Positions 12,489 through 57,637 of a DNA stretch of 57,637 bases are shown one piece after another. Source of the stretch: Proteromonas lacertae (lineage: Eukaryota). The position numbers and the translations under genes were made by a program. Under the pieces are notes generated by a model, which did no database searches, had not been told where the DNA came from, and was given only the letters and a program-made list of their open reading frames with translations. Each line of letters starts with the position of its first letter. Within the stretch, counting starts at the first letter, position 1. The stretch spans positions 62,001 to 119,637 of the forward strand of contig NGBS01000006.1 of assembly GCA_002245135.1 (NCBI GenBank), in the 5' to 3' direction.

Positions 12489-12639
12489 TTAAGATAATAA
12501 TACTTTGTTGTTTATTCATATTGTATTATTGATGATGAGTAAATATAAACAAAATAAAATAAAAATGTAAAAATGAATGTAATTGACTTGTGACATGTCA
12601 AGTCATCTCAACATAATTAAAAAATAAAAACAAATCAAA

Positions 12640-26968: not shown

Positions 26969-28712
26969 ATGAAGAAAAAAACATTATTTTATATTTCCTA
27001 TTGCCTACTCCTACTTATCATATTTATTGATATGGTAGGCACATCAATGATTGTTCCTATTTTACCTCGATACTCCAAACATTTTGGTTCATCAACATTT
27101 GAACATGGTGTTACGTTTTCATCCTATTCAATAGCTCAATTTCTTAGTTTATCGTTAATGGGTTATTTGAGCGATAAATTTGGAAGAAGACCTCTTCTGT
27201 TAGCTTCTTTATTTGGATCTACATTTGGACCAATATTCCAAGGTTTCTGTTGGAATACTTGGTCATTTATCGCCGGTAGATTCATCACAGGTGCTTTAGG
27301 AGGTAGTTCAACAATTGGATATGCGTATTTATTAATCTCAATTTTATTTTTTATATAGATGGGTAGCTGACTGTATTCCTCCCAAACAAAGACCAAAATA
27401 TCAGACTATAATGAGTGGAATGATATCTCTAGCATGGTGTATTGGTCCAGTATTTGGATCTTTACTAATCGAAGTAAGTTTATCATTTCCACTGTTTATG
27501 GCTGGAGCATTAGGAGGCATTGTATTTATATTAAGTATATTCTTCTTAAAAGAAGGATCAGAATTTGCAGAATTACTAAAAAATGAAGAAATTGAATTAG
27601 AAACACTTTCTCTTAACCAAATTAAAATTCAACAAAATGATAAAAAAAAATTATCCGTTGAATTAGATCCATTAGATCATCCAGTAAGTAGTGAAGATAG
27701 TGAAGAATTTGATGTAAATAAATTGATAGGTAAAACAGCTAGTATTCAATCACCACAATCACCATCATCTACTTCCCAGTTATTACAACAACAACAACAA
27801 CCATTAGATATTAAAACAATGGTAGATTTACCAACACCACCACCACCTGAACCAAACACAGTAATAATTAATGAAGAGGAAGTAAATGAAAGAGAAAGTC
27901 ATATATCAGTGATATCAGCAACAATAGTTGGTGCAACAGCAGTTGCTTATTCAGAAGCAGTAAGAGAAACAACAACAACTAATGATAATATAACAGTAGA
28001 TGAAACTACAAAATCATCAATTGAGAATAATAATAATAATAATAATAATAAGAACTCAAAGTTTTTGGTTGACAATTTCTACACAATATTCATATTATTG
28101 TTAATCATTTGTTTCTTATCAACTTTTCATATTAATTCTTTTGATGTTATATATCCATTAGATGCATCTGACAATTTCAATTTATCATCATTGGAATTAG
28201 GTTTTCTTTATATGGGAGTAGCTGCAATATTTGCATTATTTCAATTATATTTATTTGATAAATCCAGATATTATATGAGTATTATTAGTTTATATTATAT
28301 TTCAATTCCATCAATGAGTATATATTTATTTTTTTTTTCTTTTTTTATTTTTATAGCTATTGCCTGGATTATGTGTGCATTTGCAAAGGTTACTTGGTTG
28401 AGTATAATTGGTACTTTAATTCATGCATTTGGTGGTTCAATCTGCGCTTCTCTTCATACAGTAGTTACTTCATTACTGTGTAGACCAGAATATGGAGGAA
28501 AGTTCTTAGGTTATATGATGTCAGCTGAAGGTTTAGCGAGAATTGCAGCACCCCTTATGCTTCCTAGTATATATGATGTATGGAATCCTTTGGCATATTT
28601 AGTGACGATTGGTGTTGGGGTGATTGAGATGGTTATTATTTTTGTATTTGCATATGTCACTAGAGATGTGAAATTGTTGAGAAGAATTCGAAAGCAAGCA
28701 AAAAAGAATTAA
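26969..28712 (+). CDS. MFS transporter (TetA/DHA1-like), tandem paralogue 1
   Basis: Motif A GYLSDKFGRR, DMVGTSMIVPILP, 6+6 TM layout with long central loop; introns near 27326-27358 and 28318-28356. Confidence 0.88.
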
Positions 28713-28854: not shown

Positions 28855-30568
28855 ATGAATTGGAGGTTCATCGCATCTCTAGCAATAGTCTACGCCTCAG
28901 TTTTTATTGACGCGTTTGGTGTATCTATGATTGTACCAATATTACCAACGTTGCAAGAGTATTATCAAATGACAACTATGCAATATTCAATTACTTATGC
29001 TGCATATTGTACTGCTCAATTTTTCAGTATGATTATAATGGGTAAGCTCAGTGACATACTTGGCAGAAGAAAGTTGTTGATTACTTCACTCGTTGGTACC
29101 TCTTTAGGTATATTTCAAATATATAACATAAATACTATTTATAGGTACAATATTGCAAGGCTGTTGTTGGAGTACATGGACATTCGTTGGTGCTCGTTTT
29201 TTCACAGGCTTCATGGGTGGAAGTGCTACAGTAGGATTTGCTTATATATCTGATTGCATCCCACCAGAAAGGCGTCCAAAATATCAATCAGCAATGAGTG
29301 GAATGACTTGTATAGCATATTGCATGGGTCCAGTGTTTGGTACAATGTTAGTAGGCGTATCAGTGAAGTTGCCTTTCTTCTTAGGAGGAGCATTAGCTTC
29401 AATCATCTCTATATTTAGTTTTTGTTATGTTTTAGATGCTAAAGATTTAAAGAAGTTAGAAAAGCAAAATCAACAGGAAATAGAACTACAAACAACAAAC
29501 ACAAAAACTACAACAATTGTAAATAATAATAATAATAATAATCAACGAAATAATAATAATAATAATAGTGATGATGAAGATGATGATAATGATGATGATT
29601 TAGAAAAAATAGAAGATGAAGAAGATGACTTAGAAAAGAAAGGATTAATAACAAGAGTAGAATTACCTGCCAACAACAGAAGCAACAACAATAATAATGA
29701 TTTAACTCCCAGAATGACAGAAGAAGAATTAGATCAAAGAGAAAGTAGATTATCTCAATTAATAACTCAACATTTAGGTAATACATTTGCAGTAATTGAA
29801 TCTCATACAGTTGAAGAAGAAAAAAAGAAAAAAAGAATAAAACATGGAAAGAAAAAAGGATATTCTGTAATAAGTGAAACGGATAATTTATTGGAACTCC
29901 AAGAACAAGAAGCTGCAGTTACTCCAAGAGAAGAGAAGAAAATGAGTAAATTTATAGTTCCGAATTTTTACAAAATATTTATTCCACTTTTCTTTATCTC
30001 TGTATTGAATGGATATCATATTAATTCCTTTGATGTTTTATATCCATTGATATTAAGAGATGTTTATCATGTTAAAACATCTTATACTGGATTCTTATAT
30101 ACTTTATGTGCTGGTATATTTGCAGTAGTTCAAATATATTTATTTGATCATATTAGACATTGTTTTAGTATTATTCAGTTGTATTATATTGGAGTTTCAT
30201 TTATGATATTATCATGGGTACTTCAAGCTTTTACTAATAATGTTTGGGTTACTGTTTTTGCTGGTGCTTGGCATTCTTTTGGTGGTGCACCACCTCAAGC
30301 ACTTCAAACCATCATCACTTCATTGTTATGCAAACCTGAGTTTGGTGGTGTTTATATTGGATATATTATGGCTGCAGATGGTTTGGCTAGGATTATTTGT
30401 CCAATGTCTATACCCACCATTTATGATTTAGGAACATCTGTTCCATTTCATACAACCAATATATTAGGAGCTATTGAGATTATTTTACTTATGTACATGC
30501 ATTATCAGACTAGAAATATTCAAATGTTTAGAAGAGTTAGAAAAGAAAAGACTAATGAAAATGCATAA
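28855..30568 (+). CDS. MFS transporter (TetA/DHA1-like), tandem paralogue 2
   Basis: GKLSDILGRR, AYISDCIPPERRPKY, HINSFDVLYP shared with paralogue 1; one intron near 29108-29144. Confidence 0.88.
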
Positions 30569-31805: not shown

Positions 31806-32365
31806 ATGCCCCTTCCTGTAAGAATAAAAAAAGTATGAAAATTAATTTTACATATAATAGGAGACAGAAAAATTACAAAAAGATCCAAGTATACTTTATC
31901 TACACTATTATTTTAGTTCCAGGAGTTATTGCTACTCCAGATCCATCTAATCCTCGTTATTTTAAAGCAATTATTGATGGTCCGAAAGATAGTCCATTTG
32001 AAGGTATATTACTGTATTTTATAAATTAGGTGGAAAATTCCGCTTAGAACTATTTTTACCAGCAGATTATCCAATGGTGCCTCCAAAAGTTAGATTTACA
32101 ACAAAAGTGTTTCATCCAAATATTGATGGAATTGGACGAATTTGCTTAGATTTACTGAAAGATAATTGGACACCAGCATTACAAATAGGTAAAATACTTC
32201 AGACTATTCAAGTATAATACTATATTATAAATTTGTATATAGTTGTTATTGGCAAATCCTAACGTTGAAGATTTCTTAGGGTCAACAGCTGGAGATGCAT
32301 ATCAGAAAGACCGTAGAGCTGCAGAAGCAAAATCTAGAGAATGGACTAAGTTATATGCTCATTAA
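31806..32365 (+). CDS. UBC13: Ubiquitin-conjugating enzyme E2, Ubc13/UBE2N-like, 4 introns
   Basis: Spliced: [83 protein letters not shown]. Confidence 0.85.
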
Positions 32366-32463
32366 AACATTTATTGATTGTATTCTATTTAATTCGATAT
32401 TTTGGGTGTTAATTTAGAGTATACCATTAATATTTCTATTTCTTATAACTGCATTTGTTTATC

Positions 32464-35400
32464 TAGGCTTGGATTCTGTTTGCCAGAAACGATCCTTTTT
32501 TCTTTATTCTAGTTTTATACTTATGGAACAACTGTTTTATCAATTAAGATCTATCAGTGACTTAATCAAGTTACAAACCATCGATATGGAGAAAATCAAA
32601 AGTACTTTATTTGTTGTTTAAATCTTCTTCAGTATTATCAAACGAAATAAGAGCAATCGAGAAGAATGAGACTCTGTCTCTATCAAATGCTGAGATTTTA
32701 CATACAATATCAATAGAGCTTTACAATTTAGTTCGAAGTGAAATGCAAAAGTGTAATACACTGAATCGAATGAACTTTCTGATTGAATGTCGAATACTAT
32801 CCTGTGAAATGTTGAATACAAGCACAAAATTCAATTCAATGAAGAGTTTAAGAAATGAAGTGATTAAAGCTTACTGTCGAAGTGGTATATCAATATTGAG
32901 AATAAACAATGTCAATATACGAGGAATATCATGCTATGAGCGAGTATTGGAGATATTAGAAGAAAATGGTGGAATTGAGAGTATAATAACTGAAAAGAAT
33001 GAAGATATGGAAATATGTTTAGAATCAATATATGAGATGTTAGTCAGTTATATCGACTATATATCACGAGAAGAAAAGAATAATAAAGACAAACTGATAA
33101 ACAATATAAAACTGATAAATACAATAATTTCCTATTTAAATGATAATAAGAATGAAGAAATATACAATTTAATGTATTTATTAATATTGTTTATTATATA
33201 TAGATTTGGAATCTTAAAAGAATATCACAAAATGAATCGATATAATGATGTGATAGAAATAGGTGAGATATTTTATTCAATGATAAGTAATAATTGTGAT
33301 GATAATAAGAATATGAAAGTATTATTGCTATTAAGTGATTGTTATATAATGAACAAAGATAAGAAAGCATTAAACTGTTTATATTTGTGTGAATATGAAA
33401 AATATGGAATTGGTATATATTTGATGATAAAATATATATGTTTTACTAAAACTATATCATTTTTATATATTTTTATTTATATTTTCTTTAATTTATATTA
33501 TTTTTACAAAACCGATGAAATAGTGAAATTAATGGAAATGTTATTGAATCATAATAGTAAAGAATATTCATTATGTTTAGATGCTTGTCATATGATATTA
33601 AATAATAATATAATATCTAAAGACAATAATGAATTATATTGGTATAATGAATTAAAAGAACATTTTATTGATCATTGTGTTGATATTAATTTAGAAATAT
33701 TGGAAATACTTTTATCTAAAAATCCAATTCCATTAGATGTAATGGAAATATTGAATGAATTTAAATCAAGTATTTTTATATCTATATATTGTTTATTGAT
33801 TATTATTAAATAGATATTAATTCATTATCAGAATGTCAATTATCTTCAATATATAATCTATTATACAACACTTGTATATTGTATTATGAAAATAAACAAT
33901 ATAATGAATCAATAAATGTATATATATATATAAATAAATATATAAATATATAATAGTGGTGTAATGAGTTATTGCATTTATTGAATAATAATAATAACAG
34001 TTATATTCCCTCCATATTAAGAATGTTATCTGATTGTTACAATGAAACACATAATGTGAATGAAGCCATTAATAAAGCCAAAGAATGTATAAAGATAGAC
34101 AATACAATCAAAGTATAATGATTATTATATAATATAAATAGTCTCATTTCTTATTATATCATATATATATAAACAATAATATTGATAGAATAAATATAAA
34201 TGAAATGAAAGAATGTTTGAACAATTTAATGAATGCAAAAGATTATGATGTAAAATATTTATATTTATGTTGTGAAGAAGCCATTAAAAATAATAATATA
34301 TCAATCTCCATAGAATCCTTAGAAAGACTGTTATATTTACATAATAATATAAAGATTGGTCCAATACTTCGATGTTTAATAGAATTATATAATAATAACC
34401 ATATAAATGATGATAATAAGATATTACAATACTTTTCAAATGGATTAATGAAATTAGATAATATAAAAATAAAGAAAGAAGAAGAAGAAGAATATAATGA
34501 AAAGATAGAGAATGAGATAAAATCAATATTTGGAAATATGGAAGAGATTAATTGGATAGTTGGAATATTATGGAATAAAGGGTTATTATTGAAAGAAAAA
34601 GAGAATTATAAAATGAGTCATAAATACTTGAAATTATGTTATGAATATAGTTGTTATTTACCTCCTTCAAATATACTATTATCCTTAAAGAAATCTTCCT
34701 TATTATTATCCTCAAGCCTATTATTTGAGACAATAAATAAGAACGAAGAAAAGAAAGAAGAAGAAGAAGAAGAATATAAAGAAGTATTAAGAGAAATTGA
34801 AATATGTAAAAGATTATGTTTGAAATTAAAGAAACACTTTGAGAATAATAAAAATGATAATTTGATAGTATTTGGTAGAAAAGAGAATATTTGCACAATA
34901 AATGAGAATATGTTAATATTAAATACAATCGAAATGGAATGTAATTTATATTTACATAATAATGATAATATTGAAGAGTTATTCAATGAATATATTGAAT
35001 CAAGTACAATAATAATAAACCCAGAAATATTAGAATATATCTCTGAAATAGCTAAAAATACCAATTCCAAACCAATAATATATAAAGTATATAAATATAT
35101 ATTATTATACATATTATTATTATTATTATTATTATTATATAGAAATGCTTATCGTTATGTTTACAATATTTATATCAACAGAATCCAATAGATATAAAGT
35201 GTTTAAGTAGAATCTTAAGAAAATTATTATTACAAAGTGAAAACAAAGAAGAATTATACAAATGGCTTGAAGAAATCAATCAAATATGTGAAAATATAAA
35301 AGATGATGATTTTGATAATAGTGATTATGATTTTTATACGAGTATTAGTTGGAACAATGGAATAAAATATTTGAGATTAAAAGAGATAGAAAAGAGTGAG

Positions 35401-36014
35401 AAATTATTGAGTTTATCATTGAAATTCTTAGTAAAATCTAAAGGACTACAAGTATATATTGTAATGTATATATATCGTATAGGCTTACAGTAATGAAATG
35501 AATGAGATCTACAGTAGAGTTCTAAGTGAAAGAGAAGATTGTTGTTTACAACAACTGACTGAGATATGAATGATAATTAAAATCCTTATTATTGATATAT
35601 TGATATAGATATTGTTTTGTTTTTTGTTGTTATTTATTTCCATAAGAGAAAGAAGAGAGATTGTTGTTGATTAAAGAAAGAAGATGGATAAAATATTTCA
35701 GAATATCATATTTCAGTTGCAGATAAGAGTGAAATGTTCATTTTTGAGTTTTAGTTGTTTTTAATGAAATTCTTTCTTTGAATGAAACGACTATAATAAC
35801 GAAAAACTCAGTTTTGTTTTTTAGGATTTTTAGAATGAAATTCTCAATTCTGTGTATGATTTGTATGATATGATGAATAGTCCTTGTGCTGATCTGTAGT
35901 ATTGTTGGTGTTAGTGAAGCAGGCAGACACTTCTTCACGAATGGAAGCATTTCTGAAAGAAAGAATAGTTCAAGAAGATTAAGTGATGTCGAATTAACAA
36001 AAATATCATTTGGA
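32464..36014 (+). repeat. Left arm of a near-identical ~3.55 kb inverted duplication
   Basis: Reverse complement of 45385-48933. Paired ORF coordinates sum to 81397 or 81399, and the translations are identical except for isolated residues. Confidence 0.95.
32523..35569 (+). CDS. TEX11: TPR protein, ZIP4/SPO22/TEX11-like (meiotic crossover factor), copy 1, multi-exon
   Basis: ATG 32523, 31-nt intron 32602-32632; helical repeats; EINWIVGILWNKG and C-terminal SISWNNGIKYLRLKEIEKSEKLLSLSLKF resemble the TEX11/ZIP4 W..AWNxG repeats. Confidence 0.6.
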
Positions 36015-39000
36015 ACTAGTACTGATGGATATTATAATATAAAAGCCAGTTATTTATGTTCTTATGATAATATAGGTATAATCGACAGAACTAACTGTAA
36101 ATTTTGTAAATTTGTATATACATATAAAGGAACATATGATAGAACTAATCAAGAATATAAATTCAGTGATATTGTTCTTGATGAAGAAAAATCGTTATTC
36201 TATTTAGATTCTTCTATCGTAGCTGATTTACCGGAAAAAGAATACAAATACAGTGAACTGAAAACATCTACTGCAGCTGTACAATATGTGGAGAGTAAAA
36301 AATTACCTTTACCAGATTATGTTCATATACCCAGTGGAGAATTGATGTTGGAAGGAGACATTCGTGCACCATATTTTCAGACTTGTATATTATATCTAAA
36401 TTATGAATATAACAATTATAGTGAATAATGAAGATGTGATGTATAGAATAGAAAATAGTCATTACAAAACATATAATGCAAAAATGGATAAAATGTATGG
36501 TTATAGAAAAGATACAAGACAATATTATGAGAGATATGGTTTAGACAATAACATAACAATAATTGAAGTTCATGCAATGAACATGGAAAGAACAATATTA
36601 TATGTTGCAAATAAGAATGAGTATGTCGATATGATTGAGGAATTTAAAATAGTTCAAAATGGTGATGAAGTAGAATCTGAAAGTGGATCACCTTTATATT
36701 GTTATACAGAAGAATGTGATTATGTTAGTTCACTAGTTGATGGTTGGGTTCAGTTCTATATTCGTACAACTTTGTCATTTAAAACAATGCCAAAAGAAGA
36801 TGTAAGAAAAAACATTGATGCAGATATGAAAGCTATAAGAAAAGAGATTAGAAATTATTATAGAAGTAAAATTAGTAATACAAGAGAATTGAATAATTAT
36901 GAAAGAGATTTAGCTGATGATATTGGTTATTATTATGAAGAAAAAGGTGAAAGTAATGATATTTATAACGCATATATAATATATACAAATCAACTTACAA
37001 TATCAACGTATGAAATAGATGGTAGAGATAATGCAAATAATTCAATAAAAGGTATAATAAAAACCAAATATACAATTCCTGATAATAAGATTATAAATCC
37101 TCAGAATGATTATGATTCCACTTCTACTGCTGAATTAGCAGATTATGAGAGTTGTAAAACACCAACTCTTTTATCGTATATATGTATATTATATTAAATT
37201 TTAGTAATGTTGAATCAGTATGTGGAGTAGATGCACAAAGTACTACTAATAGTTATATATATTCACTTCCTATTACTATTCAAATATTGGAAAATAGTAT
37301 GATATTTACTGATGGTAGTAATACAAAAGAAGTAGAATTAAAAGAGAAGAGTATAAATATATGTTTATATAAATAGATGCAGATGATCTTAGAATGATAT
37401 TTGAGAAATTTTCAGTGAATACAATTCCAATACCATCTGAAAAATGTTATAATGGTAATATTATTGATATAAAACATAGTTTGGATATTAATATTACTTC
37501 AATAGATAATGAGTTATACTCATTTGTTAAAGCATTTGAAGATGGAAGTTATGGTTTTGGTATATCAACATCATCTATTTCTAGCAAAGATAAATATTCA
37601 GTATCTGAATCTAGGTATTTTAAATTCGATTATTATTCATTAACTACAGAGGATTTAAGCATTATTAATAAGGGCTATTCATATTTTACTTTCTACCATT
37701 CTCTTGTAGATGGTTTAGTTGATCTAATAGATTGTAAAAGTAATAATGATATTCAAATTCAAAAAGCATTAAATAATTACAATGAAAATGCATATTATAT
37801 TGATAGAATATTTAATAAGCAATTACCAGGAGGAAGTGATAATCCAAATGATGATGATGATAATAATGGTAATGATGATAATAATGATGATAAAACAACC
37901 ACAATAACAACCACAAAATTATTTATTCCTCCTCCAGTGTTACTATCATGTAAATTGAGTGATGAAGGATATATATTGATAATAGAATTTGATAAGAAAT
38001 GTTTAATGAATGGAATAGAAGTAAATAGTATATTTACTTGGAGTGATCCTCCATTTATAACATTTGATTCTTCAACAAGAATTGATATATTATTCTACAA
38101 ATGGATAAATGATGAAACACTATATGCTTATTATAATTCTACAACTGAAAGTATATCAGATTCTCCAAAAATGACACTTACAGAAGGATATATATATTCT
38201 GATTTAGATAGTATTTATTCAGCTAATGGTAGTTTAGCAATTACAACCAGACCTAAAGTTCCTAAAATATTGAATGGTGAATTTATTGATGAAAATATAA
38301 TTGAAATTAATTTTGACATAGAAATCAAAGAAGGAATTAGTATAAGTGGAAGAAAATGTAATGAAATTTTTAGTGATGAAACATTTGGTCCTTCATCAAT
38401 GTGTTATTTATCATCATCGTTGAAAACAATAACAATGAAAATGTCCAATCCAATTACAATATTTCCAAATAATAATTTGACATTAATTCCAAATATACTA
38501 AAAAGCAGTAAAAAGCATATGGAAGGAAGTAAAGGAACTATAAATCTGTCATTATCAGAATCATTTGAAACAGAATTAGAAGCAATAATCTCAATTCCTT
38601 CAATTGTTTCATATTGTTATGATTTTATAATGGATGGAAGTAGAAGTAGAGGTTCAAGTAGACCATTGATCTATCACTGGAGTTCTTCAAATGAAACATT
38701 AAATAATACAATATCCTCTTTAAATGAAGCAATGATAATAATTCCAAAATATTTATTAGAAGGTGGACATTATTATGATGTAAAATTAGAAATCGAAAGT
38801 TCATTTGATCATAGCAATGAATCAAGTAATATAACATTTTTTGTTGATTCAAATTTTGTATTAAATGTGAATATAGAAGGAGATAATAATCATTCAATAT
38901 ATACAAGTCAAAGTGAATATATTCGTGGAAGAGTCTCAGTATATCAATGTAACAAAAGTATTGAAATTCCATCAATTGAATATGATTGGTCATTAAAACA

Positions 39001-43589: not shown

Positions 43590-45564
43590 TTAATTGATAG
43601 TTGATAATCTATATATCATTAAATTGTTTTCTATTAACGTTTCTATAAATGTATGATAATTTATTAATAACGAATATTCAACAACAAATATAAAGTTATT
43701 AACTAGTTTACCTTCTGCAATTGCTTTATTGTCATTTTTAAGCTCTTCTGTTGTTGCAAATACATAAACAGCATCTCCTACAGCCTTATATTGTTTTACT
43801 TCAGATATTGTTTCATACTCAACTAATGATATCTCTGAATTGGAATAAACATATATCATTCCACCACCAAATATCAATTTACTAGATACATAACTTCTAT
43901 CTCTTATTATGGTTATATTAGTTTCTTCCACTCCATCTCCAGAAAAACTAAAATCATAATTCAAACATTTGTCAGAAGGGATTGGAATTGTATTGAAGGT
44001 AGATTTTTCAATTATCATTCTTAGATCATTTATATCTATTAAAATAAACATAAATTTATACTCTTCTCTTTTAATTCTACTTCTTTTGAATAATCTGAAA
44101 TAGTAATTCTTAAACTCTTTTCCAATACTTCAATCCTGGTTGGAATACTATCCAACATTCTATTTATCTGCTGTACTGCATTTGATCCACATTTTAATTC
44201 AACATCTCTATTTATAAATATAATATTCAAATATACGATAAAAGTGTTGGTGTTTTACAATTCTCATAGTAATTAAATTCAATAGTTGAAGAAGGTTCAT
44301 AATCATTCTGAGGATTTATAATCTTATTCTCTGGTATTGTATATTTACATTTTAATAAATATTTTTCACTTCTACTCATAGAATTATATGTTAAAATTGA
44401 TAATATATTTGAATCTAATATGTAACTATGAAAATAATCACTATCATCGCCATCTTCATAATAATATCCAACATCATTAGTTAAATCTCTTTCATAATTA
44501 TTCAATTCTCTTGTATTACTAATTTTACTTCTATAATAATTTCTAATCTCTTTTCTAATAGCTTTCATATCTGAATCAATGTTTTTTCTTACATCTTCTT
44601 TTGCCATAGGTCTAAATGATCCTAATATGCTTGTATAGAAATCAGCCCAACCTTCTTCTTCATTATACATACCAACATAGTCACATTCTTCAGTATAACA
44701 ATATATTACACTACCTCTTGTATCTTTTATTTCATCACCATTTTGAATTTTTTCTATGACAGAGATACCATCGATGAATATATTTTCATCAGCTATATAA
44801 GTGATCGCTCTAAAATAATCCATTGCATTTACAACTATTACAGTAATATTATTATATATCCCTAATCCATCGAAATATTTCATAGATTCTTTACTATAAC
44901 CATACATTTTATCCATTTTTGCATTATATGTTTTGTAATGACTGTTTTCTATTCTATACATCACATCTTCATTGCTTACTATAATTATATATATATATAT
45001 ATATATACGACTGTAAGAGTCTCTATATTTATTATCACTATCATCAAAAAAATATGACATATATGAATCTATTTCAACTTTTGTTATATATGGTGATTTT
45101 TTACTCTCCACATATTGTACAGCTTCTGCACATCCTTTCAATTCACTGTATTTGTATTCTTTCTCTGGTAAATCGCAGTAGATAGATCCATCTAAATAGA
45201 ATATAGATTTTTCTTCATCTACAACATAATCACTAAAACTGTAGGTTTTAGTTGTTTTATCATATGTTCCTTTATATGTATATACAAATTTACAGAATTT
45301 ACAGTTATCTCTATCAATAATGGCCAAATTTTCATAAGAACATAAATAACCAACTTTTGCATTATTTCCAAACATAGATATAGCTCCAAACGATATTTTT
45401 GTTAATTCGACATCACTTAATCTTCTTGAAATATTCTTTCTTTCAGAAATGCTTCCATTCGTGAAGAAGTGTCTGCCTGCTTCACTAACACCAACAATAC
45501 TACAGATCAGCACAAGGACTATTCATCATATCATACAAATCATACACAGAATTGAGAATTTCAT
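43590..45564 (-). CDS. Truncated, probably secreted paralogue of the receptor N-terminal domain (no REJ/GPS/TM body)
   Basis: Same first exon and signal peptide, same intron positions and patchy identity to 35835-37450; stops at 43590 with no membrane anchor. Confidence 0.75.
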
Positions 45565-48500
45565 TCTAAAAATCCTAAAAAACAAAACTGAGTTTTTCGT
45601 TATTATAGTCGTTTCATTCAAAGAAAGAATTTCATTAAAAACAACTAAAACTCAAAAATGAACATTTCACTCTTATCTGCAACTGAAATATGATATTCTG
45701 AAATATTTTATCCATCTTCTTTCTTTAATCAACAACAATCTCTCTTCTTTCTCTTATGGAAATAAATAACAACAAAAAACAAAACAATATCTATATCAAT
45801 ATATCAATAATAAGGATTTTAATTATCATTCATATCTCAGTCAGTTGTTGTAAACAACAATCTTCTCTTTCACTTAGAACTCTACTGTAGATCTCATTCA
45901 TTTCATTACTGTAAGCCTATACGATATATATACATTACAATATATACTTGTAGTCCTTTAGATTTTACTAAGAATTTCAATGATAAACTCAATAATTTCT
46001 CACTCTTTTCTATCTCTTTTAATCTCAAATATTTTATTCCATTGTTCCAACTAATACTCGTATAAAAATCATAATCACTATTATCAAAATCATCATCTTT
46101 TATATTTTCACATATTTGATTGATTTCTTCAAGCCATTTGTATAATTCTTCTTTGTTTTCACTTTGTAATAATAATTTTCTTAAGATTCTACTTAAACAC
46201 TTTATATCTATTGGATTCTGTTGATATAAATATTGTAAACATAACGATAAGCATTTCTATATAATAATAATAATAATAATAATAATATGTATAATAATAT
46301 ATATTTATATACTTTATATATTATTGGTTTGGAATTGGTATTTTTAGCTATTTCAGAGATATATTCTAATATTTCTGGGTTTATTATTATTGTACTTGAT
46401 TCAATATATTCATTGAATAACTCTTCAATATTATCATTATTATGTAAATATAAATTACATTCCATTTCGATTGTATTTAATATTAACATATTCTCATTTA
46501 TTGTGCAAATATTCTCTTTTCTACCAAATACTATCAAATTATCATTTTTATTATTCTCAAAGTGTTTCTTTAATTTCAAACATAATCTTTTACATATTTC
46601 AATTTCTCTTAATACTTCTTTATATTCTTCTTCTTCTTCTTCTTTCTTTTCTTCGTTCTTATTTATTGTCTCAAATAATAGGCTTGAGGATAATAATAAG
46701 GAAGATTTCTTTAAGGATAATAGTATATTTGAAGGAGGTAAATAACAACTATATTCATAACATAATTTCAAGTATTTATGACTCATTTTATAATTCTCTT
46801 TTTCTTTCAATAATAACCCTTTATTCCATAATATTCCAACTATCCAATTAATCTCTTCCATATTTCCAAATATTGATTTTATCTCATTCTCTATTTTTTC
46901 ATTATATTCTTCTTCTTCTTCTTTCTTTATTTTTATATTATCTAATTTCATTAATCCATTTGAAAAGTATTGTAATATCTTATTATCATCATTTATATGG
47001 TTATTATTATATAATTCTATTAAACATCGAAGTATTGGACCAATCTTTATATTATTATGTAAATATAACAGTCTTTCTAAGGATTCTATGGAGATTGATA
47101 TATTATTATTTTTAATGGCTTCTTCACAACATAAATATAAATATTTTACATCATAATCTTTTGCATTCATTAAATTGTTCAAACATTCTTTCATTTCATT
47201 TATATTTATTCTATCAATATTATTGTTTATATATATATGATATAATAAGAAATGAGACTATTTATATTATATAATAATCATTATACTTTGATTGTATTGT
47301 CTATCTTTATACATTCTTTGGCTTTATTAATGGCTTCATTCACATTATGTGTTTCATTGTAACAATCAGATAACATTCTTAATATGGAGGGAATATAACT
47401 GTTATTATTATTATTCAATAAATGCAATAACTCATTACACCACTATTATATATTTATATATTTATTTATATATATATACATTTATTGATTCATTATATTG
47501 TTTATTTTCATAATACAATATACAAGTGTTGTATAATAGATTATATATTGAAGATAATTGACATTCTGATAATGAATTAATATCTATTTAATAATAATCA
47601 ATAAACAATATATAGATATAAAAATACTTGATTTAAATTCATTCAATATTTCCATTACATCTAATGGAATTGGATTTTTAGATAAAAGTATTTCCAATAT
47701 TTCTAAATTAATATCAACACAATGATCAATAAAATGTTCTTTTAATTCATTATACCAATATAATTCATTATTGTCTTTAGATATTATATTATTATTTAAT
47801 ATCATATGACAAGCATCTAAACATAATGAATATTCTTTACTATTATGATTCAATAACATTTCCATTAATTTCACTATTTCATCGGTTTTGTAAAAATAAT
47901 ATAAATTAAAGAAAATATAAATAAAAATATATAAAAATGATATAGTTTTAGTAAAACATATATATTTTATCATCAAATATATACCAATTCCATATTTTTC
48001 ATATTCACACAAATATAAACAGTTTAATGCTTTCTTATCTTTGTTCATTATATAACAATCACTTAATAGCAATAATACTTTCATATTCTTATTATCATCA
48101 CAATTATTACTTATCATTGAATAAAATATCTCACCTATTTCTATCACATCATTATATAGATTCATTTTGTGATATTCTTTTAAGATTCCAAATCTATATA
48201 TAATAAACAATATTAATAAATACATTAAATTGTATATTTCTTCATTCTTATTATCATTTAAATAGGAAATTATTGTATTTATCAGTTTTATATTGTTTAT
48301 CAGTTTGTCTTTATTATTCTTTTCTTCTCGTGATATATAGTCGATATAACTGACTAACATCTCATATATTGATTCTAAACATATTTCCATATCTTCATTC
48401 TTTTCAGTTATTATACTCTCAATTCCACCATTTTCTTCTAATATCTCCAATACTCGCTCATAGCATGATATTCCTCGTATATTGACATTGTTTATTCTCA

Positions 48501-48933
48501 ATATTGATATACCACTTCGACAGTAAGCTTTAATCACTTCATTTCTTAAACTCTTCATTGAATTGAATTTTGTGCTTGTATTCAACATTTCACAGGATAG
48601 TATTCGACATTCAATCAGAAAGTTCATTCGATTCAGTGTATTACACTTTTGCATTTCACTTCGAACTAAATTGTAAAGCTCTATTGATATTGTATGTAAA
48701 ATCTCAGCATTTGATAGAGACAGAGTCTCATTCTTCTCGATTGCTCTTATTTCGTTTGATAATACTGAAGAAGATTTAAACAACAAATAAAGTACTTTTG
48801 ATTTTCTCCATATCGATGGTTTGTAACTTGATTAAGTCACTGATAGATCTTAATTGATAAAACAGTTGTTCCATAAGTATAAAACTAGAATAAAGAAAAA
48901 AGGATCGTTTCTGGCAAACAGAATCCAAGCCTA
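45385..48933 (-). repeat. Right arm of the inverted duplication
   Basis: Reverse complement of 32464-36014. Confidence 0.95.
45830..48874 (-). CDS. TEX11: ZIP4/SPO22/TEX11-like TPR protein, copy 2
   Basis: Mirror of 32523-35569; one visible amino-acid change (KMNRYN to KMNLYN). Confidence 0.6.
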
Positions 48934-49008
48934 AATACCTTAAAAACGTGAATATATTCATCATCAATACATAACATAATAATATATATTAAGGGCTACA
49001 GACCCAAA

Positions 49009-49055
49009 ATGGCTTGACGCTAGACCACGAGGCTTGACGCTGGACCCGAGGCTAA
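49009..49055 (+). repeat. Subterminal GC-rich tandem repeat GGCTTGACGCTRGACC(A)CGA, ~2.3 copies
   Basis: ggcttgacgctagaccacga ggcttgacgctggacccga ggcta. Confidence 0.85.
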
Positions 49056-49144
49056 AATTCGTATATTCGTTTCATTTTTCTTATTTTTCATTTTATTCAA
49101 TAACCGTTCATTTGTACAACGGTTTTAACGGTCGTTATGAATCC

Positions 49145-49176
49145 GTTACATGTCAGTTACATAACTGACGTGTAAC
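49145..49176. repeat. Inverted repeat/hairpin, 15-bp arms with 1 mismatch
   Basis: GTTACATGTCAGTTA-CA-TAACTGACGTGTAAC. Confidence 0.85.
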
Positions 49177-49272
49177 TGACGGTGTAACTGCCGTCCGTTG
49201 TAAACATTTGTTCAATTATGTTATAGAGACTGATATAAACCTTAGGAAGGCCATATACACCACCTAAGACTC

Positions 49273-49304
49273 GTTTTCACTTTCCCTTGTTTTCACTTTC
49301 CCTT
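49273..49304 (+). repeat. 16-nt direct repeat x2 (GTTTTCACTTTCCCTT)
   Basis: Directly visible. Confidence 0.9.
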
Positions 49305-49339
49305 TTCTTTTACTCATTTAGTTTTTGAAATGCGGATTT

Positions 49340-49458
49340 CATAATCGATTTTCCTTTCCCTTTCTTTTTTTCACTTATTTACCTAGAGAAAAGTGATCGA
49401 CTTCACTTTCCCTAAGTAAGGAAGTGAAAAAAAGAAAGGGTAAGAAGAATCGGTTATG
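49340..49458. repeat. ~120-nt imperfect palindrome with a perfect 19-bp stem
   Basis: 49358-49376 CCCTTTCTTTTTTTCACTT pairs with 49422-49440; outer CATAATCGATT/AATCGGTTATG; imperfect inner stem. Confidence 0.9.
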
Positions 49459-49579
49459 GATTTTTTATGTTATTTTAAATAAACCCTTAAAAACACACAG
49501 TCTTCTTTTTATTTTAATTAATCTCTGTATTAGTATTTAAAATATATAATTATTTAATCATAATTAGATAAATTCATAT

Positions 49580-49992
49580 TTACTTACTTCTTTTTTTGAT
49601 ATCTGCATCCATTTTCACTCTAGCTGCTAAAGCATCACATAATAAAGATAGTAATCCATTAACTGCGTAATCTAATTTGTTATCAATAAATAATTGATTA
49701 TTCTCAATTAATTCTTTCTTAAATCTATTACCATCTTTTCTAATATTATCTAAATATGTGATAATTTCCAATCTTTTTTTCGTTGCATACTGATTACTAT
49801 AATAATGCTTAACTTTGTCTAGTATAGCTTTTAACTTTGCTAGATTAGCTATACTCTCTTCTAAATAATATAAGAAATGAATTTCTGTATATCCATTTAA
49901 TGCTAATTCTCTAATGCTATTAAAAACTTTGATCCAAAATGGTATTTCTTCTTGAACCATTGTTATATCTCTCTGATAAACAAAATGACGCA
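49580..49992 (-). CDS. Hypothetical helical protein of the Polinton-like element
   Basis: Clean ORF of ~137 aa from the ATG at 49992, divergent from PolB; no family recognised. Confidence 0.6.
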
Positions 49993-50045
49993 TATTAATA
50001 TAGTAAATAATCAAAAAAACAATAAATTAAAAGTAAAGTTAATTA

Positions 50046-50189: not shown

Positions 50190-53100
50190 ATGTATCCCAG
50201 CTATCCTCCTTGGTTTAATCCGTGGTATTACCAGTCTCCAAGTACTTCTATGCCTATTCAAGGCAATAGTCAAGCAAATCAGATTCCAATGTTGCCACAA
50301 AGTTATTTTAATCCCTGGATGAACCCTTATTTTACTCCAGCTATCCCACCACCACCACCATCCTATTACTATCCTCCACCATATTATGTAGGATCATTAA
50401 ATCAACATCCACAACAACCTCAGCAGCAGCAGCAACAACAACAACAACAATCAAACACTACTAGAAGTACTAATGGAACTAGTTTCATAACACCAAGAAG
50501 AAGAACAACATCTTCAATTGTAATTGATCAACCACCTCCTCCACCTCCAAAAATACAGCGATTAGCAGAAATCCCAGATGATTTATTGCCAGATACACCT
50601 CCTCCTGAAGATCCACCAACACTTTCACCAATTAATGATGGACCAATTCCTGAAATACATCCTCAATCAACTACAGATGTTGAAAGAAGAAGGCAGCTAC
50701 AGGAAGAAATGATTGCTCTGGATGTTGTTGATAATCATCCAGAGCAGTTGAAAACAATGTCACATCCTGAAAGAGTAAGTTTGTTACAACTTGTAGAGAG
50801 AAGCAGTAGAGACTACGAACGTACCTACGAGAAGATTATAAATGAAGAAGATGGAAAGAAACCTGAGGATTTGTTTACCCAAATCTGCAATGCATCAAGT
50901 GATTTTATGGTTACCATACGTAACTACATAAATGAGAAGAAATTTTCTTATATAAAAGTGTATTTCAGATTCAGAGTAGGTTATATAGGATCCGATGAAC
51001 CAGCCAATGCACAAGTAAGTTGTTACAAAACATTCGAAACAGCGCCAGAAATTATAACTTCTCAAGAGTTAGGTACAATTGGTTCAAAGTTAAACAATGC
51101 CATGATTCGAGATTTAGGTTCAATTTTCAACACTGAAAGATCTGAACTAAAGTTCAGATATATTAAGAAGGTAGAGATGATACTGATGAAAAGTTCAATG
51201 GCTGCTGGATCCTCTACAGAAGATGACAACATAAAGTTACCAGCAAGTCTCAACAATAGAAAGTGCGTTATTAATTTAGTAAGATATAGTGAAGAATGTA
51301 AGAATATGTGCTTTTTATTTAGTGTGGCAGCTGGTTTACACTATATAGAGTTCAAAGACCACCGTAACAGAGCAATGAAATATAAACAGTATGTAGACTT
51401 AATGGATGTAAGTAGTTTAAGGTTTCCAGTAGATGCAATTAATGATAGTGACAGAATTGATGAGTTTGAACAGCTGAATCATATTACTATCAATATATTT
51501 ACAATAGACCAGAATGAACCAATACCTTTATACGTTACCAACATAGATAAAAGAAAACACTGGCCTCATGTGAACCTATTGATATATAAAGATCATTATA
51601 TGGTAATAACAAAGTTAGAAGCCTTCCTATCACCTTCTGGTAAAAGGTGTCATAATTATTATACCAGATGCCAGTATTGTTTCTGTACTTTATCAACAGC
51701 TGATATGATAATTCAACATCAGAAAGAGAACTGTCAATTACAAAAAGGAATCATTCGTCAATTTCCACCTCCAGATACCTTCATCAAGTTTCATAATTTC
51801 AAATACCAACAAATGATTCCTGTAGTATTATACTGGGATACAGAAGTTATACAAGTACCAATAGATCCTTCTGAAGTAATACCTGGAGCCAAAGGAGCGT
51901 TTAAAAAACATATTCTCAGCAGTTGGTGCATTCACTTAAGTTCCAGGTACCCTGAAATCATCAGCGAAGAAACATTCTTCGGAAAACTGGAATTGCAGCA
52001 AGATCCACAAGATTTGGAGATGCAACTAGTAAAGAAGTTTGTTGAGATTCAAGATTATGTATTGAAGAAGTATGAAGATTATAAAAGTGGTGAATTGAAA
52101 CCATTAGATGAAAGCACTTATATTCCAGCTCATAAAAATATCGATAAATGTATGTGGTGCAATACACCCTTCAATGAAAACGACAGAAATAGAAGGCGAA
52201 CAAGACACCATGACCATTTTACTGGTAAGTATATTGCAACCTTATGTTCAAACTGTAATTGGCATTGTAGTTTACAACATATGCCTATACCATGTTTGGC
52301 ACACAACAGTAAAAACTATGACAATAACTTTATAATACGCGGATTATCAAAGTTGGATAAAGAAATGGAAGCAAAATGGTACAATGATAATAATATTCCT
52401 ATTCCAAATGATGATGATGATGATGATGAAGATAATGAAATTATACAATTACCAATACCTGAACCTGAACCTGAACCAATTGCTGATAGATTAGCTGAAT
52501 ACAATAGAGGTATTGAAGAAGAAAAGAAACAAGAACAAGAAGCAAAAACAGTTGATAATGATGAAGAAGATGCAGAAACAGAAGAAGATACTGATTCTGA
52601 TTTGCCATTACCAGAAATACCACCAAATGCAATTGAAATAGTTGATGAGAATGATCCAGCAAATGAAGAAGCATTTAATGAGTTGTATTACATGTTACAT
52701 AGTAGAGATCATTACATATCACCAAGAACAGCAGAAGATATTGGATTAGAAGAAGAGATGGGAAATATTATTGTTTCACAACCTAATTCAACAACAACTG
52801 AACAACAACAACAACAACAACCAACACCAAGAAAGAAGAAATATCATTCAAAACTATCTGTATTGTTAAAAACTGATAATAAGTTTTTACTTATCAAGTT
52901 CATGAAGTTACACTTTATAGATAGTTGTCAATTTATGCCAGCATCATTAGATTCATTAGTAAAGTCATTGAAAGTCGAAGCTGATGCACATGCTAATCAT
53001 AAAGTACTCTTTAAACCAGTTTATCAATATGTAACACAAACAAAAGAGATAAATGATTGTTTAAAAGAGAGAAACTGGACAGTGGATGATTTTATAGCTA

Positions 53101-55077
53101 AGTGGGGTTTACAGAAAGGTCATTTCCCCTACGAATACGTAGATAGTATTCAAAAGTTATACCTTACTGATAAATTACCTAGAAAAGAAGATTTTAAGTC
53201 TCAATTAAAACAGAATGAAGGTATATCTGATTATGATTATGAATCATCTCAAGCTCTCTGGACTCTATTGAAATGTAAAAACTTGATGGATTACAATATG
53301 TTCTATTTAGCAATTGATGTTCTTACATTATCTAGTGTATTTGATCACTTTAGGAATGTTGTATTTAGAACGTTTACATTAGATCCATGCTGGCATGTAT
53401 CATGTCCTGGATTAGCCTGGAGTATATTCCTTAAAAAATCCAAAGTGGATATAGAACTAATATCAGATCAAGACAAGTATGACTTTATGAGAAAAGGTCT
53501 TATTGGTGGAATTTCAATGATTGGATCTACGAGAAAAGCAGAAGCTAAAAATCATTACATGGATCCTCCATACTTTTCAGATCATACTTCTCATCCACCA
53601 AAACAAGAAACATATATTATGTATGTAGATTATAATTCTCTATATCCTTCTACAATGGCATCAATGAAATTACCCTATAAAGACTTTCAATGGGAACCAA
53701 ATCCTCAATTAATTTATGATAATGTTATAACAAAATTAAAACCTTATGAGGATTTAAAAAGATCATTTATGGTAGAAGATCAGAAGCTGTGGAAGGATCC
53801 AGAGAGCAGAGGTTATATATTAGAAGTTGATATAGAACCTCCAGATAATACAAATGGCAAGTTCTCAGAGTATCCTTTGTTTCCTGAACGAAAGATAATA
53901 TTATATGAAGATTTGTCACCAACACAGAAGCAATGGGCCAGAGAATTAGGATTAGTAGCTGTCAACAAAAAGTCTGGCAAAGAAGTATTGAAGAATAATA
54001 CAGCAAGAATAATATGTGATTTATCCAACAAGTATCATTATGTTGTTCATTATCAATATCTAAACTATGCTGTGAAGTTAGGATATAAAGTAACCAAAGT
54101 ATGGAGAGTAATTAGTTTTTGTGAAACAGATTATGCGTATGAATTTGTTATGCAATGCCATCTATTAAGAAAAGATGCAAAGAAGTTCCATCGAGATGCA
54201 GAAGCTGATACGTTTAAACTAATCCTGAATAGTGCATATGGTAAGACATGTGAGAATACTGAGAATAGATGTAGAAGTAGACTAGTTAATAATGAGGACC
54301 AATTCCTCAAATGTGTTAGCAATCCATACTTTACTGGTTTTGTTTCAATTGATGGTTGTGACTTGAGAGTGTGTAAGTTTAAAAAATACAAGTGTGCAAT
54401 AGATAAGCCAAGCTATATTGGAATGTCCATTCTTTGCCAATCAAAGTATCTTATGGCAAAGTTTTGGTATGGACAATTATATCAAAAGTATAAACAAGGA
54501 TTGCGTTTATTAATGACAGATACAGACTCTTTTATCTTTATGGTATGGACAGATGATATATACAAAGATATTGCTAATGATTTAAGTCTACAAGGTTGCA
54601 TGGATACTGGTAATATTAATTGTGATTATCTTAAAGAGAGAGGTATTCGTTATCAGAACTATCAAAGAACAGGTGAACTGAATTTACTTAAAATGGAAGA
54701 GAACAAAAGTGATCAATTATATACAATAACAAAATTCTGTGGATTGAAAGCAAAGATGTATGCTTATGAGAAGCAAAGAGTGGATGGATTTACGCATTTA
54801 AAGGTGTCTGATAGCAGAGCAAAAGGCGTAACTAAAGGTTTCAGAATAAAGACTTGTGACTATGATTACTACAAGAATATCTTAGAAAGTAAAGAACTAA
54901 GTAAAGTTTATGTTAATCAATATAGTTTCAGAAGTGCAAAACAAGTAGTATACACAGTTAAACAACCAAAGTTAGCTTTTACAATCTTTGATATAAAGAG
55001 ATTTTACTTGAATGTTTTAACTTCAATTCCTTATACTATAAGTCGCCCACCACCACCAATGTTTACAGATATTGTCG

Positions 55078-55113
<36 letters not shown>

Positions 55114-55145
55114 TTATTAATATTGATGAAAATAGCATTAATTAG
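50190..55145 (+). CDS. Protein-primed family B DNA polymerase (pPolB) with putative terminal protein, vOTU-like and HNH/Endonuclease VII domains
   Basis: ExoI WDTE, ExoII HNSKNYD, ExoIII YLAIDV; Pol A YVDYNSLYP, B KLILNSAYGK, C TDTDS, KAKMY, AKGV; HNH CMWC..HHDHFTGKYIATLCSNCN. Confidence 0.95.
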
Positions 55146-55204: not shown

Positions 55205-56496
55205 ATGCTTACTAATTCTTATTATAATCAGCCTTACACTAAGTCAAATACAAATGCAACTCAAGAACTACCACCAGGATATAAGTTTGTTGATCAAACA
55301 AACCAATCAAACCTTACGAGCAATTTTAACAATGCACCACCGCCATTACAGAATTTTACAAGAGCGGATCCGTATGATGATGATGAAATGTCAAGACAAA
55401 TCGAGCAGTATAGAGAATATTTAGATAGACTTTATGAACAGTATTATTATTTAAGTGAAAAACAGTTTATTAAATTAACTCAAGAAGCTATTGGAAAGAA
55501 TGAAGTTCCACCTCCTTATGATGTTGTTAGAGAGTATCTTAGACGTAAACCAGGTCGTCAAGTAGTTGATTTCAAGTACAATAAAGATTTACCTTTTGCA
55601 ACTGTTAAGAAACCAGGCTATTTTCAATTAGATATTGTCTTTTTCTTACCTCAATTATATCATTTATATATAATAGAAATAAACTCTAGAAAAGTATGGG
55701 TGATACCAATGTCAAGCAATAATGCTGTAGATATAATGAGAGCTTTTAATGCATGGTATTTTAAAACAAATGAAGATGGTTCTGAAATAGTATCAAAAAG
55801 ACGTGTTGTAAGTATTTTAGCTGATTTAGAAAGTGGTTTTAGTGTAGTTAAAGAGTTCTGTGATAAGGAAGGAATAACATTCTATCAAAAGCACCTAATG
55901 AACATAGAATAGAAGCTATATTAGATAAATCGGTAAGTGTAATAAAGAAACTATTATATAAACACTTGATAGACTTAGGAATAGAAGCACCAGAGTTTCA
56001 AGCTAATATTGATCGACGGGACAGAAGAGAAATCATCGATCAAAAGTGGTTAGCACGTTTCAATGATATTGTACAACAAGCTGTGAATGACTATAACAAC
56101 AAACCATTATCAAGTTTGAGAGATTTTACACCTAATGAAGTATACAATAGTCCTAAACTACAAAACAGAATGTTAATGGAATCAATCAAATACAATTTTA
56201 ATAATGAACAAAGATTAAAAGTTCATTTTCAAGTAGGAGATTTAGTTCGATTTAAAGAGAGAAGAAGACCTATGGATAAAAACACTTATTGGTCAGATAA
56301 GATATATCGTATTATAAAGAAGAACAGATACTCTTATATGTTAGGAGATACAAATGGAAATTGGGATGAAGATGTGTCTCGATATAGGTTTAAGCACTAT
56401 GAACTTCAATTAGTAGCTAGAAGGGATCCTGAAACAAATTTCAGACATATTTTGGAAAGACCTCGAATCAGAAAAGGTGATAATACAATTGTGTAA
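55205..56496 (+). CDS. Retroviral-like (rve) integrase with C-terminal SH3-like domain, split by a -1 frameshift at ~55890
   Basis: FQLDIVF..YIIEINSRKVWV, ILADLESGF; in the -1 frame APNEHRIEAILDKSVSVIKK continues into ORF 55966 (YNNKPLSSLRDFTPNE; FQVGDLVRF..WSDKIYRI). Confidence 0.88.
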
Positions 56497-57371: not shown

Positions 57372-57637
57372 TTATACTATTCCAAACTCTTTTTTCATCA
57401 TTGCTACTCTTTTCTCACCTACCACTGTATTAAATCTGTAGCCTGCTTGAATGTTCTTTTTCTATTTAATATATCGTTCAAAAAATTGATTGCGAAAAAA
57501 CCACAATTACTTGTATTACTATTCTGGTTTTGAACTGCATTGATTTTTAACTGATATGGTTTTTCATGAAATTTCTTGAACTTTTTCAAACATTCTTTGA
57601 AATATTCTAGTTTCTGAGGATCCTCACCGAAAGAATC
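57372..57637 (-). CDS. Adenain/Ulp1-type cysteine protease (Polinton maturation protease), C-terminal part; not in the ORF track
   Basis: Manual translation from the window end: DSFGEDPQK..QNQNSNTSNCGFFAINFL (catalytic D, oxyanion Q and C). Stop at 57419, or at 57372 if a 1-nt deletion is corrected. Confidence 0.85.

Follow-up and report, generated by a model that had tools for sequence, protein, structure and literature searches.

The window, meaning the whole 57,637-nt stretch of DNA that was analyzed, has a GC content of ~26% and carries eukaryotic genes. One of them encodes a chromatin-remodelling helicase whose nearest matches by identity are unnamed and oomycete proteins (58-63%). Another, which by our reading of the sequence is presumably ubiquitin-conjugating-enzyme-like (~31850-32365), contains two likely introns of 26 nt (32004-32029) and 31 nt (32212-32242), both read from the DNA. 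Short introns and low-GC lineages of this kind are described for Blastocystis in PMC12129017. At the level of lineage, these features suggest that the host is a stramenopile protist, possibly one akin to Blastocystis. A tandem pair of MFS transporter genes was also observed (27364-28712 and 29153-30568). Further along, a 5-kb inverted duplication surrounds a 2000-aa TSP1/tetraspanin-like ORF. Its two arms are as follows.

32460-37448, plus strand: left arm of the host inverted duplication, beginning ~97 nt past the ubiquitin-conjugating-enzyme-like gene
43964-48937, minus strand: right arm of the host inverted duplication; the alignment ends at 48937 and perfect identity ends at 48933

The outer 3.5 kb of the arms differ at a handful of sites, and the inner 1.4 kb differ at ~20-40% of columns. 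This pattern suggests recent homogenization that ended 21-25 nt from the edge of the Polinton described below. Given a 3.5-kb homogenization tract at this distance, the end of the element may have been rearranged or trimmed, and insertion of the Polinton may have been what triggered the arm repair. It is very improbable, in our judgment, that the junction is an assembly artefact in which this near-identical repeat was joined to a multi-copy element. Such an error would fit the fact that both neighbors are repeats, as well as the frame change in the integrase gene, which could be a base-calling error. However, in the inner arm the paralogous copies are far more diverged, the outer arms have several differences of their own, and the spacer of 21-25 nt that separates the right arm from the candidate tip is unique.

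Genes and non-coding end of the element

Beyond the right arm we found a non-coding stretch with repeats and hairpins, followed by genes for a protein-primed DNA polymerase and an integrase.

49011-49046, plus strand: two 16-nt direct repeats, 94% alike, with a spacing of 20
49142-49179: hairpin-forming inverted repeat with 18-nt arms, 89% complementary
49271-49458: pyrimidine-rich 17-nt repeats in four copies, plus a long inverted repeat with arms of 52 nt (85%)
49580-50014, minus strand: 144-aa ORF for which no relatives were found
50190-55145, plus strand: protein-primed DNA polymerase of 1651 aa (PF03175, E 3.3e-17)
55205-56496, plus strand: rve-type integrase gene with a frame change near 55890 (ORFs 55205-55912 and 55966-56496)
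57419-57637, minus strand: likely cysteine protease of the adenain/Ulp1 type, truncated where the window stops; its C-terminal 72 aa are present

The predicted folding of 48934-49480 was better than that of 100 out of 100 shuffled sequences (z -5.05), and the repeat region at 49271-49458 is likely an inner terminal inverted repeat. Two strong hairpins within the likely terminal repeat (49142-49179 and 49340-49458) are candidate replication or packaging signals.

The polymerase has 816 relatives at E<=0.001. Its core is ~31-37% identical to the bulk of the matches listed, some of which are named from animal genomes, and the closest polymerases among the matches listed are four unnamed proteins with 39-56% identity. 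When the window polymerase was aligned with 69 chosen relatives, Cys374 of the vOTU domain was present in 69 of the 70 rows and His469 in all 70. The N-terminal part gave a confident structural model (pLDDT 84). A BFVD search with this model returned an adintovirus protein as the best match (E 6.9e-18), with adintovirus and MELD-virus proteins being the closest and adenovirus absent among the 50 matches listed. The best matches in a PDB search were Y-family polymerases at E 0.003-0.04, which is below significance; a Y-family likeness of the little-finger type is reported for PRD1-like terminal proteins (PMC11161782). These results predict that the polymerase is fused to a terminal-protein-like domain and that the Cys/His pair of its vOTU domain is intact. 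We also observed that the head of the protein (50190-50650) is long and Pro/Tyr/Gln-rich, and that an acidic stretch of ~170 aa (~52330-52850) precedes the PF03175 part. The closest relative (P0001) carries both of these features.

Both halves of the integrase match the intact rve integrase of one related locus, L003 (E 5e-10 and 4e-5). The L003 integrase itself matches PF00665 at E 4.7e-13, and the direct Pfam match of the window integrase is weak (E 0.11). A single frame change interrupts the integrase gene, in contrast to the intact 5-kb reading frame of the polymerase; the change is either a real lesion or a base-calling error. For the 72-aa protease-like fragment, phmmer matches were weak (best E 0.016 among 2080 ORFs), and PF00770 or PF22102 was found in two of the four matching ORFs that were scanned. 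The examined sequence stops within the element; its right end lies beyond, and capsid or packaging ATPase genes are absent from the window.

The sequence-only reading had proposed an integrase-bearing, protein-primed element at this position, and the polymerase, the rve integrase and the N-terminal model bear this out. As judged from these sequences, the left-end region of an integrase-bearing, protein-primed Polinton (Maverick)-type element is real. It is a new Polinton of a divergent lineage, possibly with a CAT-type end, for which full-text searches of openly accessible articles gave no report; in one article that came up, the string CATCAT is part of a PCR primer.

Position and sequence of the candidate tip

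The 11-mer CATCATCAATA is present on the plus strand at 48959-48969 with TATATT (48953-48958) immediately 5' of it. The duplication breakpoint lies before these sequences and the repeat-rich region lies beyond them, just as the sequence-only reading had described.

48934-48958: unique spacer of 21-25 nt from the breakpoint to CATCAT, containing CCTTAAAAAC (48938-48947)
48952-48958: candidate target-site duplication; for a start at 48959 it would be TATATT (48953-48958)
48959-48969, plus strand: candidate left TIR tip CATCATCAATA, inside (TCA)3 at 48958-48966; putative terminus
48970-48993, plus strand: AT-rich; contains (ATA)2 at 48976-48979 and (AT)3 at 48982-48984 as alternative tandem starts

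Because perfect identity of the duplication ends at 48933 and the composition turns GC/CpG-rich at ~48990-49002, ~30 AT-rich nt past CATCAT, the left end of the element is confined to ~48934-49000. We rejected the compositional change point itself (~49000) as a locator of the tip, since an AT-rich tip would resemble host DNA. The left duplication arm was likewise rejected as an 'empty site', since homology between the arms ends 21-25 nt before CATCAT. When the spacer was compared with the flank of the left copy, no homology was detected (the anchored score was 0, and 98.6% of 1000 shuffles did at least as well in local score).

Since the repeat is (TCA)3 beginning at 48958, the register is ambiguous, and the first base of the element, if this is the tip, would be 48958, 48959 or 48960. 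A start at 48958 would change the candidate duplication to ATATAT (48952-48957), which is self-complementary. A 12-bp palindrome, TGAATATATTCA (48949-48960), encloses the candidate target duplication. Target duplications of Polintons are 5-8 bp according to the available text of bioRxiv 10.1101/2023.08.22.554363.

Tandem starts within 48930-49020 consist of (AT)3 at 48952, the CAT cluster at 48958-48961, (ATA)2 at 48976-48979 and (AT)3 at 48982-48984. No AG or AGT repeat occurs in this interval, and thus the classic (AG)3 or (AGT)2 Polinton motif is absent from it, in agreement with the claim of the sequence-only reading that the end is unlike that of classic Polintons. Vertebrate Mavericks are reported to end in (AGT)2, (AG)3 or (AC)3A, motifs that are read as jump-back signals, and short terminal repeats permitting jump-back are described as the norm in Mavericks, with the motif being variable (PMC8097293). 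That the CAT repeat could serve as a jump-back tip had also been suggested from the sequence. This is plausible by the mechanism set out for adenovirus, where TP-CAT forms as an intermediate and then jumps by 3 nt (PMC5175343).

Two sequences in the spacer bear on where host DNA gives way to element DNA. The 10-mer CCTTAAAAAC has its sole other copy in the window at 49485-49494, toward the inner end of the non-coding part of the element. A recurrence of this kind was equalled by 1.2%-6.9% of 3000 random host 25-mers. Its position upstream of CATCAT hints that element DNA could begin up to 21 nt earlier, and it could be templated filler or part of the element. Conversely, GTGAATATATT, directly 5' of CATCAT, looks host-like because it is found twice in host DNA.

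Searches for other copies produced relatives that were distant. Alignment-based searches gave 116 related loci (~20-42% identity), and searches with the polymerase alone gave no close locus. Comparison of the element end with the 116 loci yielded only low-complexity AT-rich matches. An exact search with the candidate end or the subterminal repeat had no match in viral contigs or prokaryote genomes. With a 17-mer version of the candidate end there were seven matches, none of which reads inward from a contig end. Among the starts of the 116 loci, whose ends are not all contig ends, we found GTAGTAG or TAGTAG at four, GTGTGT at three (L032, L033 and L035) and CATCAT at one (L005). The L005 start was rejected as a terminus and attributed to chance, as it falls inside the polymerase reading frame. 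As a separate observation, a 13.8-kb stretch of L047 (2805-16600) with a related polymerase is flanked by 75-bp inverted repeats and a 7-bp direct repeat (TAGCCCT); its tip is without a tandem repeat. A Polinton-like virus, the MELD virus, is known from Blastocystis data (PMC8502044).

Chance, likeness to adenovirus ends and the preferred reading of the tip

Copies of the 11-mer occur at four sites in the window (9196 and 12527 on the minus strand, 18617 and 48959 on the plus strand). Only 0.29 copies were expected from dinucleotide shuffles and none of 100 shuffles reached four, whereas Markov models of order 5 and order 6 predicted 1.1 and 1.8 copies, respectively. Four copies are not clearly in excess of chance. 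Stop-free reading frames hold two of the three host copies, and the copy at 18617 has 14 nt in common with the candidate tip. Among 5000 random 60-nt host windows, CATCAT occurred in 4.3%, the 11-mer in 0.16% and some (XYZ)2 or (XY)3 repeat in 80%, percentages that are post hoc and do not account for the number of motifs that a reader might recognize. Of the tandem repeats in the left-end region, CATCAT/(TCA)3 is the one least expected. A bacterial promoter scan was uninformative, with three promoters found versus 2.8 expected.

That the 11-mer is wholly chance is a serious contender, to which we give a little less belief than to the preferred reading given below. The element would then start elsewhere in 48934-49000, or its tip would have been lost or replaced during copying of the adjacent 3.5-kb arm from the inverted paralogue, leaving filler at the junction. 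The three further host copies and the order-5 and order-6 Markov expectations argue for this explanation, as do the CCTTAAAAAC repeat upstream of CATCAT, the alternative tandem starts (48952, 48976-48979 and 48982-48984) and the duplication breakpoint at a distance of no more than 25 nt, which suggests a repair junction. The low frequencies of CATCAT and of the 11-mer in comparable host windows argue against it, as does the host-like GTGAATATATT before CATCAT.

The adenovirus terminal motif CATCATCAAT is present in the window, with its terminal position being a candidate one. The conserved mastadenovirus end shares an identity of 11 nt with CATCATCAATA in the available texts of PMC3569329 and PMC13459929. 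The likeness stops there: the window end departs from adenovirus ends at positions 12-15, the match breaking off after base 11. Of the ATAATATACC core, which is bound by pTP-polymerase (PMC2397415), 5 of 10 positions are kept at the window tip in an ungapped comparison (positions 9-18), a count that would be higher if two compensating gaps were allowed. By matching a 17-nt adenovirus end motif we collected 102 loci (L117-L218). In 59 of them the motif matched at base 1 or 2, 27 being distinct over 45 nt; we call these adenovirus-type because of their motif, size and ORF layout, and the agreement of their first 17 bases is a given, as the search pattern itself imposed it. Over positions 12-45, the best of the 27 ends matched the window at 15 of 34 positions, with a mean of 10.4. 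The remaining 43 of the 102 matches lay away from locus starts, most of them within other viral contigs, which is an indication that such AT-rich strings are often chance.

Host DNA provided a comparable or better match to the adenovirus end. The published mastadenovirus end primer (PMC13459929) agrees with the candidate over the first 11 nt and at 14 of the first 18 positions. Host DNA (1-48900, both strands) contains one 14-nt prefix match to this primer (12537, minus strand) and two of 11 nt, and at five host sites 14-15 of the first 18 primer positions agree. The 13-mer CATCATCAATAAT, which the sequence-only reading had quoted, is absent at 48959, and its single occurrence is in host DNA (12525-12537, minus strand). 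Because the surrounding host DNA has the better match, the adenovirus likeness of the end is likely chance. An adenovirus-type end that extends past the first 11 nt was therefore not upheld, given the half-kept ATAATATACC core, the 14-nt host match and a polymerase that is Polinton-like.

Comparisons of the polymerase gave similar results. No tblastn match at E<=1 was obtained between its core and the adenovirus-type loci. In phmmer comparisons with nine adenovirus-type polymerases the best E was 0.089, versus 1e-88 or better for the top Polinton-type matches. In adenovirids, which are proposed to derive from polintons, the terminal protein is separate and the vOTU is inactive (PMC11161782). 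The window element has a fused domain in place of a separate terminal protein gene, an intact Cys/His pair in place of an inactive vOTU, and an integrase, which adenovirids lack. A quick tree was built from 42 rows, consisting of the window polymerase, 14 of the 120 listed proteins, 21 of the 116 loci and six adenovirus-type polymerases. In this tree the window polymerase and its four relatives formed a group of their own (support 99), and this group and the six adenovirus-type polymerases fell on the same side of a branch with a support of 95. However, the adenovirus branch has a length of 4.59 and its joins were flagged as long-branch, and L036 and L101, which start with GTAGTAG, also lie on that side.

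We consider it improbable that CATCATCAATA is a true adenovirus-type origin, retained through common descent or strong convergence in an integrating Polinton lineage near the branch leading to adenoviruses. The 11-nt identity, which lies where an end is expected and is present in 0.16% of host windows, and the proposed polinton origin of adenovirids would be consistent with such an origin, and the tree position is the one result that favors it. Set against these are the break at base 12, the poor agreement over the core and over positions 12-45, the sequence comparisons of the polymerase, the intact vOTU pair and fused domain (both of which adenovirids lack; PMC11161782), and a tree position on long branches that is flagged as unreliable.

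Our preferred reading, held tentatively and at somewhat less than an even chance, is that the CAT/TCA repeat (48958-48966) is the real tip of the Polinton and that the extra bases in common with adenovirus ends are chance. When this reading and that of an adenovirus-type origin are counted jointly, our judgment, which is not a computed value, is that a tip at 48958-48960 has a slightly better than even chance. The CAT repeat is favored since no AG/AGT repeat is nearby and CATCAT is infrequent in host 60-mers. In addition, the layout, in which a short repeat is followed by ~30 AT-rich nt, GC-rich direct repeats and hairpins, fits a terminal repeat. Evidence against CATCAT as the tip is that some tandem start is present in most host 60-mers and that the repeat starts of distant relatives are GTAGTAG/TAGTAG or GTGTGT.

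If the CAT repeat is the tip, the gene set and the known relatives suggest how the element would replicate and move. The terminal-protein-like domain of the polymerase would itself bind the first nucleotide. Copying would begin slightly inward of the linear end, by a few bases, and the tip would be regained through a jump back by one 3-nt repeat unit. Freeing the terminal protein would presumably be the task of the fused vOTU protease. The linear DNA would have been inserted by the rve integrase at an AT-rich host site with a duplication of 5-6 bp. The right end would be expected to read ...TATTGATGATG followed by TATATT for a start at 48959, or ...TATTGATGATGA followed by ATATAT for a start at 48958.

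A real tip at this position would add a CAT-type end to the Maverick motifs (AGT)2, (AG)3 and (AC)3A given in PMC8097293, and would allow jump-back priming to be tested directly in a Polinton. An adenovirus-type origin, if true, would bear on the emergence of adenoviruses from Polintons, a reading that the present evidence does not favor. A shared CATCATCAATA origin would mean that a common replication signal links a protist Polinton lineage to the proposed adenovirus ancestor, and that an rve integrase is able to insert CAT-ended DNA. If the tip lies elsewhere, the motif would be an AT-rich coincidence next to an ordinary, if divergent, Polinton.

Comparison with known systems

Bam35-like tectiviruses and bidnavirus-type viruses are not known to carry an rve integrase. 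Their ends resemble the candidate in having a short terminal reiteration for jump-back initiation (PMC5175343), as do the GTGTGT starts of L032, L033 and L035, but the motif is another one than that of the window tip. The mastadenovirus ITR is similar in its first 11 nt, CATCATCAATA, and in both cases an AT-rich tip is followed by a GC-rich part. In contrast, there is no similarity further inward, and the window element has an integrase, a predicted fused terminal-protein-like domain and a predicted intact vOTU.

The Polintons/Mavericks (Polintoviricetes, including adintoviruses and the Blastocystis MELD virus) share with the window element a pPolB with terminal-protein-like and vOTU domains, an adjacent rve integrase and a long non-coding end with repeats and hairpins; the protease-like gene is a candidate further shared feature. 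The Blastocystis MELD virus is included here from its description in PMC8502044. The window element differs from known Polintons in that its polymerase groups with four unnamed proteins and in that its edge is without an AG/AGT repeat.
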